From assembly GCF_003334315.1 (NCBI RefSeq), contig NZ_QOWR01000127.1: 898 nt of DNA. One strand, given 5' to 3'. Both the position numbers and the translations under genes were made by a program. Each line of letters starts with the position of its first letter. Position 1 is the stretch's first letter. The stretch comes from Escherichia coli (GTDB lineage: Bacteria > Pseudomonadota > Gammaproteobacteria > Enterobacterales > Enterobacteriaceae). Shown here piece after piece: positions 1 through 898 of this stretch. The notes beneath the pieces are model-generated. The model searched no databases. It was not told the origin of the DNA and was given only the letters and a program-made list of their open reading frames with translations.

Positions 1-149
1 GGTTGAGAAGCGGTGTAAGTGAACTGCAGTTGCCATGTTTTACGGCAGTGAGAGCAGAGATAGCGCTGATGTCCGGCGGTGCTTTTGCCGTTACGCACCA
101 CCCCGTCAGTAGCTGAACAGGAGGGACAGCTGATAGAAACAGAAGCCAC
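1..149 (-). CDS. insA: IS1 InsA (transposition inhibitor / N-terminal part of the InsAB' transposase), 5' part only, runs off the window edge
   Basis: Minus-strand translation from the GTG whose complement is at 147..149: [50 protein letters not shown], continuing past position 1. It includes the CxxC...CxxC zinc-finger-like motif typical of InsA. Confidence 0.88.
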
Positions 150-181
150 TGGAGCACCTCAAAAACACCATCATACACTAA

Positions 182-204
182 ATCAGTAAGTTGGCATCAT
201 CACC
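182..204 (-). repeat. IS1 terminal inverted repeat (IRL-like), 23 bp, outermost base at 204
   Basis: Minus-strand sequence GGTGATGATGCCAACTTACTGAT against the canonical IRL GGTGATGCTGCCAACTTACTGAT as I remember it; the single difference is at window position 197. Confidence 0.8.
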
Positions 205-268
205 GTAGATGAGTTGTGTAAGAAAGTGACAAGTTGGATGTATTCGCATCCTGGAGAGAGAATTAGAT

Positions 269-487
269 ATGAACGTTTTAAGACACGTTAATGCGATTAA
301 CATGGGAGTGTGCATTCTAATTTGGGTTATTGGATGTGCAAATGCTAAAGTTCTTAAACGATGTATATTACCCGCTCCTGATGGTGGCGTAGAAAAACTA
401 TCAAAACCCAACTTACATGGAGTAATTAAAAAAGTTGATTTGAACACAAATGAAGCGGAAATTAAAATAAAAGAGGGGGGGCAGTGA
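269..487 (+). CDS. Putative small lipoprotein, 72 aa as written; possibly the N-terminal part of a longer frameshifted gene
   Basis: ORF from the track. Shine-Dalgarno-like GGAGAGAG at 253..260, about 8 nt before the ATG at 269. The N-terminus MNVLRHVNAINMGVCILIWVIGC has a basic n-region, a hydrophobic core and a lipobox-like V-I-G-C with Cys23; Ala at +2 suggests outer-membrane sorting by the Lol rule. The mature part is Lys-rich, as expected for AT-rich acquired DNA. No family recognised. Confidence 0.55.
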   Translation: MNVLRHVNAINMGVCILIWVIGCANAKVLKRCILPAPDGGVEKLSKPNLHGVIKKVDLNTNEAEIKIKEGGQ

Positions 488-660
488 GTTTTATTTTTAA
501 TGAGGAAACATTGTATTTTACTGTTTTTGGTGGGGATTTTATTATGGATGATTTAAAAAAAGTAAAAAATACGGAAGCATGGGTATGGTATAAAAATTGC
601 GATAGTAAAAATAAAAATGTGGCAGTTGAACTTCTTCAAATCTACGAATTGCATCAATGA
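484..660 (+). CDS. Small ORF of 58 codons from GTG 484 (or 38 aa from ATG 544); probably the C-terminal part of the upstream lipoprotein gene, separated by a frameshift in a G7 tract
   Basis: The frame is open from 466 to the TGA at 658..660, about 65 codons without a stop in ~30% GC DNA, which is unlikely by chance. Translation: VSFIFNEETLYFTVFGGDFIMDDLKKVKNTEAWVWYKNCDSKNKNVAVELLQIYELHQ. GTG 484 lies only ~3 nt after the G-run (poor spacing for initiation); ATG 544 has GGTGGGG at 529..535 with ~8 nt spacing. It is not in the supplied ORF track, presumably because it is short. Confidence 0.4.
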   Translation: MSFIFNEETLYFTVFGGDFIMDDLKKVKNTEAWVWYKNCDSKNKNVAVELLQIYELHQ

Positions 661-829: not shown

Positions 830-898
830 GTAATAAGCATAAGCTTGTGAAGAGATGGTGGCAGGCCCACCGGGATCTGCTGTCGGAAGTCGGTCCCA

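Follow-up and report, generated by a model that had tools for sequence, protein, structure and literature searches.

The window analysed here, an 898-nt stretch of DNA that occurs letter for letter in the chromosome of E. coli PSS-13, carries at positions 269–660 a single gene for an exported protein of ~130 aa, interrupted by a frameshift in a run of seven G residues (G7). Our preferred explanation, to which we assign a probability of about 70%, is that a real slippage event from G8 to G7 inactivated an immunity gene that had been orphaned by IS1, and that the locus is decaying at a mutational hotspot. According to this model, the gene would encode a Sec-exported small β-barrel protein and overlaps the sequence for the toxin tip of an Rhs protein delivered by the T6SS. 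A G8 run situated in a variable surface loop is easily altered in length by replication slippage, and in this genome one G would have been lost. Translation of the G7 allele would then end after 72 residues, such that two of the six β-strands would be kept while the conserved C-terminal half would be out of frame. By then, IS1 would have removed the gene for the toxin together with the greater part of the secretion system, leaving the immunity gene without its partner. A real inactivating frameshift was one of several options listed in an earlier note on this DNA, and it provides the best fit; the reading given in that note included neither IS1, nor the Rhs toxin tail, nor a role in immunity. 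The frameshift is itself an event of an ordinary kind.

The G run and the two reading frames

The features of the window that are relevant to this model are listed below.

1–204, minus strand: left end of IS1, with its terminal inverted repeat at 182–204; it abuts the IS1A transposase coding sequence in PSS-13
205–291, plus strand: Rhs toxin remnant consisting of the last 28 codons (VDELCKKVTSWMYSHPGERIRYERFKTR) and the stop codon, the catalytic part being gone; it matches the 3′ end of full-length Rhs coding sequences elsewhere
269–487, plus strand: 5′ part of the candidate immunity gene in the G7 allele, 72 aa comprising a signal peptide, a CxLPxPDGG motif and the first two predicted β-strands, followed by a premature stop
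475–481, plus strand: G7 homopolymer and frameshift site; the in-frame G8 allele encodes E-G-G-A in a variable loop
481–660, plus strand: 3′ part of the candidate immunity gene, out of frame; it would encode strands 3–6 with an invariant FGGD and the nearly invariant W107 and C111
701–724, plus strand: hairpin resembling a terminator (AGCATC-ACGT-GATGCT, then a T run), 40 nt past the stop codon of the gene and the sole such site after it

The 72-aa ORF ends in ...KIKEGGQ-stop, the final codons being GAG (473–475), GGG, GGG, CAG and the TGA stop (485–487). The second frame contains a stop at 463–465 and is open from 466 to 660. Thus, the window's single G7 run at 475–481, the ORF at 269–487 and the open frame at 466–660 all lie where the earlier note had placed them. 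The annotators (PGAP and the ORF listing) give a separate 58-aa ORF at 484–660, the GTG start codon of which overlaps the TGA stop. That note had also claimed that one extra G would fuse the frames into a protein of ~130 aa. Addition of one G to G7 does so, and the fused protein (...KIKEGGAVSFIFNEETLYF...HQ) is exactly the 130-aa WP_001101839.1 of G8 genomes, in which GAG GGG GGG GCA is read as E-G-G-A. Restoration of the frame from G7 corresponds to a −1 shift in which one G is read again, which is equivalent to the insertion of one G. The 72-aa product is WP_001101841.1 and corresponds to UniProt O52674 (DsORF-g1), a name that dates to Sanger-era work, namely the 1998 description of RhsG.

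The G7 run exceeds chance expectation. The expected number of such runs was 0.03 per window, and only 5 of 200 dinucleotide-preserving shuffles contained one. The G+C content of the immunity gene is 33%, and no other run of at least seven G or C residues was found in 77 kb of flanking E. coli sequence.

The earlier note argued that the full-length form, joined from the two ORFs, is or recently was functional, and our analysis led to a similar conclusion, with the ORFs as halves of one protein whose full-length form is the functional one. Positions 269–660 are one gene for a protein of ~130 aa because G8, which gives a single coding sequence, is the majority allele (~71%, see below), because homologues span the junction, and because the modelled fold is a single domain. 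An exhaustive HMMER search of 1.84 billion representatives gave 64 matches. About 40 distant homologues (28–50% identity) are single secreted proteins of 120–145 aa that align across the junction, and every short match was a variant at least 80% identical, and mostly more than 90% identical, to the E. coli query. Neither half alone was found as a homologue below 90% identity in the protein or HMMER searches. In the alignment of the homologues, P35, D38 and G51 upstream of the junction and G88 and G89 downstream of it are invariant, C32, W107 and C111 are nearly invariant, and the position of the G tract is a gapped, variable loop. The G tract is absent from the closest distant homologue (50% identity).

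An AlphaFold model built on the homologue alignment (pLDDT 88.9) predicts one small β-barrel with strands at residues 49–57, 62–67, 72–76, 82–85, 102–107 and 122–125, with the break falling between strands 2 and 3. The 72-aa product would therefore contain the signal peptide and two of the six strands, and the 58-aa product lacks a signal peptide. A search of this model against the PDB with Foldseek gave only weak matches to OB-like barrels (CusF and IF1), none of which had an E-value of 0.001 or below, and for this reason we draw no functional inference from them. No usable family emerged when the sequence of the 130-aa protein was compared with Pfam, NCBIfam and the PDB. DUF4367 was considered as its family and rejected, the match being weak (E = 4.6e-4) and shared by only one of 35 family members. 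A word-indexed protein search with the fused protein returned near-identical E. coli entries only and was uninformative with respect to the junction. The terminator-like hairpin is found only after the gene, with no terminator-like site detected between the 72-aa and 58-aa ORFs, in keeping with transcription of both as one unit.

Inspection of the N-terminal region revealed that V-I-G-C at residues 20–23 fits the lipobox pattern formally. A normal signal peptidase I site (A-N-A followed by K) lies three residues past this sequence, the Cys of V-I-G-C is not conserved in the homologues, and one source names the protein 'Lipoprotein'. Judged from these features, it is uncertain whether the 130-aa protein is a lipoprotein.

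The IS1 junction and the Rhs toxin tip

In PSS-13, IS1 links a truncated tssD (Hcp) gene to window base 205, and similarity to Rhs-bearing strains begins at that same base. In strains without IS1, the sequence from base 205 onward is the 3′ end of the coding sequence for a ~1410-aa Rhs protein, located downstream of vgrG. Because IS1 joins truncated tssD to base 205, the gene for the Rhs toxin and the greater part of the T6SS cluster have been replaced by IS1 in this strain. Among complete genomes, only PSS-13 (G7) and ET745 have this IS1 junction; the junction of ET745 is identical to that of the window, but its tract is G8. This finding fits loss of the G after the toxin had been deleted, which is the order of events that we favor.

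The terminal repeat of IS1 has a T at position 197 in the window and a G in ET745. At least 10 other genomes carry IS1 at different points in or near the immunity gene. E. coli B/BL21 is among these cases, with similarity starting at window base 304.

In related strains the Rhs protein has the properties of a T6SS Rhs effector, with a core that ends in PxxxxDPxGL, a variable tip, and vgrG and tss genes upstream. The tip consists of the 153 aa that follow the PIRYTDPLGL motif. Residues 34–134 of the tip match Pfam YkuD (PF03734, E = 3.4e-5), and the tip carries the sequence WLHGGG...TMGCTRAQNED, with the conserved His and the catalytic-Cys motif H...GC(T)R. The intact toxin tip of other strains is predicted to be L,D-transpeptidase (YkuD)-like. 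No significant match of the tip was obtained with DUF2778, with NCBIfam models or, by sequence, with solved structures.

A YkuD-like tip should attack peptidoglycan in the periplasm, such that the exported protein encoded downstream is most likely a periplasmic immunity protein. The 130-aa protein is thus a candidate for the immunity protein of the Rhs cell-wall toxin, and most likely has this role given its position, its export signal and the context of its homologues. The start of its gene overlaps the end of the Rhs coding sequence by 23 nt; overlap with the 3′ end of the toxin gene is the usual position of an Rhs immunity gene. The 50%-identical homologue (P0025) is encoded in an array of immunity genes (Imm57, Rap1a and MafI2), and another distant homologue sits in an Rhs array. 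No adjacent YkuD toxin was present in the neighborhoods of the five distant homologues examined. The gene upstream of one distant homologue was considered as a toxin candidate and was rejected, its product having a polyphosphate-kinase-like C-terminus. The metagenome contig encoding P0025 (L008:2376-8552) contains a one-directional array of small genes in which Imm57 occurs twice, together with Rap1a, DUF7668 and MafI2. No toxin gene is in view there, and the array looks like an orphan immunity-gene island.

The YkuD-like tip and the immunity gene also occur at a second Rhs locus, beside pptA/yddH (L016, L019 and L020). The first Rhs locus (L001 and others) adjoins yafV, and its SNP haplotypes differ slightly from those of the pptA/yddH locus. 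The presence of the same tip–immunity module at two Rhs loci suggests that tips have been exchanged between Rhs elements. In strain ETEC1702 (L017:2947-6087), a 1046-aa 'VgrG' coding sequence continues directly into the tail of the Rhs toxin and terminates at the stop codon that Rhs normally uses. A deletion apparently fused vgrG to the Rhs C-terminus in this strain, and the immunity gene there is G7.

Length of the G run among E. coli genomes

Alleles were counted as exact matches among the 1015 complete E. coli genomes that carry the locus.

G8: 718 of 1015 genomes (~71%), a single 393-nt coding sequence (WP_001101839.1)
G7: 184 of 1015 genomes
G9: 52 of 1015 genomes
G6: 12–14 of 1015 genomes
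G10: seen once, in STECUZB006

The comparison with related genomes and the protein searches that the earlier note had proposed therefore revealed a prevailing G8 and homologues that span the junction, rather than a consistent G7 with two independently conserved small proteins. One identical SNP haplotype carries all five lengths (G6, G7, G8, G9 and G10), and G7 and G8 each occur on three SNP haplotypes, at two chromosomal Rhs loci. The distribution of G7 and G8 implies at least three independent G8-to-G7 changes, in addition to changes to other lengths. From these comparisons, the poly-G tract is a slippage-prone hotspot at which slippage has occurred repeatedly. G7 is uniform across the listed O121 and O121:H19 isolates, and G9 is uniform in the Ec-050 serial isolates (T0, T5 and T20) as well as in related dog and human isolates. 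Uniform lengths within strain groups speak against noise from assembly and likewise against switching at a very high rate. The 72-aa, 58-aa and 130-aa products are each encoded on at least 1000 contigs. Plasmid pC27A-2 (87.8% identity) was considered as a source of a divergent homologue and was rejected, as its record is riddled with indels.

We also compared the frame of the immunity gene with the state of the Rhs gene. A small sample of 22 genomes, not chosen at random, included 10 with G8, of which 5 had an intact Rhs ORF, and 12 with an out-of-frame tract, of which likewise 5 did, and hence there was no association between frame state and Rhs ORF integrity in this sample. Since out-of-frame alleles also occur in genomes that still have the toxin, simple decay following its loss does not account for the whole pattern. 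A full-length Rhs ORF together with an out-of-frame immunity gene is present in VR50 (G7), NCTC9104 (G9) and ETEC1722 (G6), and in VR50 vgrG is intact as well. These three strains might escape self-intoxication because the T6SS is silent, because frameshifting is leaky or because the toxin is inactive.

Phase variation, an option raised in the earlier note, is borne out in that the tract is hypermutable between lineages, but not in that its lengths are stable within clones. In its adaptive form, slipped-strand mispairing would have the poly-G tract switch immunity reversibly on (G8) and off (G6, G7, G9 and G10), with both states being selected. This explanation is favored by the five tract lengths on one SNP haplotype with their repeated independent changes, by the out-of-frame state of at least about a quarter of the carriers, and by the coexistence of off alleles with intact toxin genes. 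Moreover, the tract is highly improbable in DNA of 33% G+C and sits in a tolerant loop. However, the uniform lengths in clones and in the Ec-050 serial isolates indicate that switching would be slower than in classical systems, there is no evident benefit from turning off an immunity protein, and the tract is missing from the closest distant homologue (50% identity). Furthermore, strains share at least 99% identity over the whole module, so that persistence of the tract is no sign of selection for it. We consider adaptive phase variation unlikely. It seems less probable again that poly-G serves as a working immunity switch, or that G7 cells have low-level immunity via −1 slippage. If this were true, the tract would be a simple-sequence contingency locus in E. 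coli governing interbacterial conflict, and the existence of out-of-frame alleles alongside intact toxin genes would be explained.

A homopolymer sequencing or assembly error in this genome, which would mean that the genome really has G8 and an undamaged gene, is improbable. Long-read assemblies are prone to errors in G runs of 7–8, the one other complete genome that shares this IS1 junction (ET745) carries G8, and the poor-quality record of pC27A-2 has many indels in this region. On the other hand, G7 is the exact allele of 184 complete genomes, which come from many laboratories, and it is consistent within clones, and the 72-aa product, found on at least 1000 contigs, has been named DsORF-g1 in UniProt. 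The sequencing error suggested in the earlier note is thus unlikely as a general explanation for the G7 allele.

Full-length protein would arise from G7 if ribosomes made a programmed −1 frameshift, or if transcription slipped, on G GGG GGG. The sequence at 475–481 is formally an X XXY YYZ slippery heptamer in register with the ORF at 269–487, as tandem tRNA-Gly slippage would require; a −1 shift gives exactly the G8 product, and a stop codon lies two codons after the heptamer. Some full-length protein could be made from G7 in this way. Nevertheless, no downstream stimulatory structure was identified, the fold z-score being +0.44 with 129 of 200 shuffles folding as well. In addition, the split arrangement is the minority state, the distant homologues are plain single ORFs, and the G9 and G6 alleles would require the opposite shift. 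On these grounds programmed frameshifting, which the earlier note had also listed, is very improbable.

Two real, translationally coupled small genes of 72 and 58 aa, with the G run acting as the Shine-Dalgarno sequence for GTG 484, can be practically discounted: GAGG at 473–476 lies 7 nt before GTG 484, there is a GTGA overlap and both ORFs are annotated by PGAP, but neither half has a stand-alone homologue below 90% identity, and the distant relatives are all continuous across the junction. In addition, a signal peptide is missing from the 58-aa piece, and each half accounts for only a portion of a single barrel.

Known systems and the downstream sequence

A G8-to-G7 frameshift in an orphaned immunity gene places the locus beside several known systems. 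It resembles the poly-G/poly-C contingency loci of Neisseria, Haemophilus and Campylobacter surface genes in that a coding G run of strain-variable length sets the reading frame of an exported protein. It differs from them in that the gene would be an immunity gene rather than one for a surface antigen, and in that the lengths look fixed within clones. Phase variation in E. coli usually occurs by inversion or methylation.

Salmonella Tlde1 is a periplasmic T6SS effector with an L,D-transpeptidase fold that has a Sec-exported immunity protein and is sometimes fused to Rhs (10.1101/2020.02.18.954545; PMC9638812), and polymorphic toxins with L,D-peptidase tips were described in 2012 (PMC3482391). 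The Tlde1/Tldi1 pair (originally Tae5/Tai5) and the module described here have in common an L,D-transpeptidase-related T6SS toxin, an Rhs carrier and, next to it, a small Sec-exported candidate immunity protein, features that in our case are predicted from sequence. However, whereas Tlde1 belongs to DUF2778, the toxin tip here matches YkuD (PF03734) only, and the immunity candidate does not belong to DUF2195, the family of Tldi1. In ST410, deletions have removed the T6SS and left an rhsG remnant (PMC10711316). The window is similar in that loss of the T6SS left an Rhs remnant, in this instance with IS1.

Our search of the literature on RhsG and dsORF-g1 revealed no mention that dsORF-g1 is the first half of a 130-aa gene broken by a frameshift, or of a polymorphic poly-G tract, and a search for homopolymeric tracts in T6SS immunity genes, Rhs-YkuD and dsORF yielded nothing on this locus. 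Since 269–660 is one gene, WP_001101841.1 and WP_000008098.1, together with the G6, G9 and G10 variants, which are widespread RefSeq 'hypothetical proteins', are fragments of it, and dsORF-g1, an entry of long standing in the databases, represents its first half. About one-fifth of complete E. coli genomes carry the Rhs module, and roughly a quarter of these are without an in-frame immunity gene, in some cases with an intact toxin ORF. The state of the tract would bear on susceptibility in T6SS competition among gut E. coli. More generally, this uncharacterised family of small exported β-barrels would supply candidate immunity proteins for L,D-transpeptidase-like toxins.

Further downstream, window positions 857–898 (plus strand) are the start of a full-length, strong match to Rfam RF01999 (group-II-D1D4-2), with a score of 81.8 bits compared with a gathering score of 36; the full match is seen at L002:6654-6774 and L001:8653-8773. 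This element is located between the immunity gene and an ISAs1/H-repeat transposase coding sequence. The second Rhs locus has it as well (L019, 62.7 bits), and it is absent from O121:H19 (L016). No D5/D6 match was found beside the element in the 1.8 kb searched, and the next annotated coding sequence is the ISAs1 transposase. The element may represent a fragment of a group II intron, or it may belong to the leader of the H-repeat.
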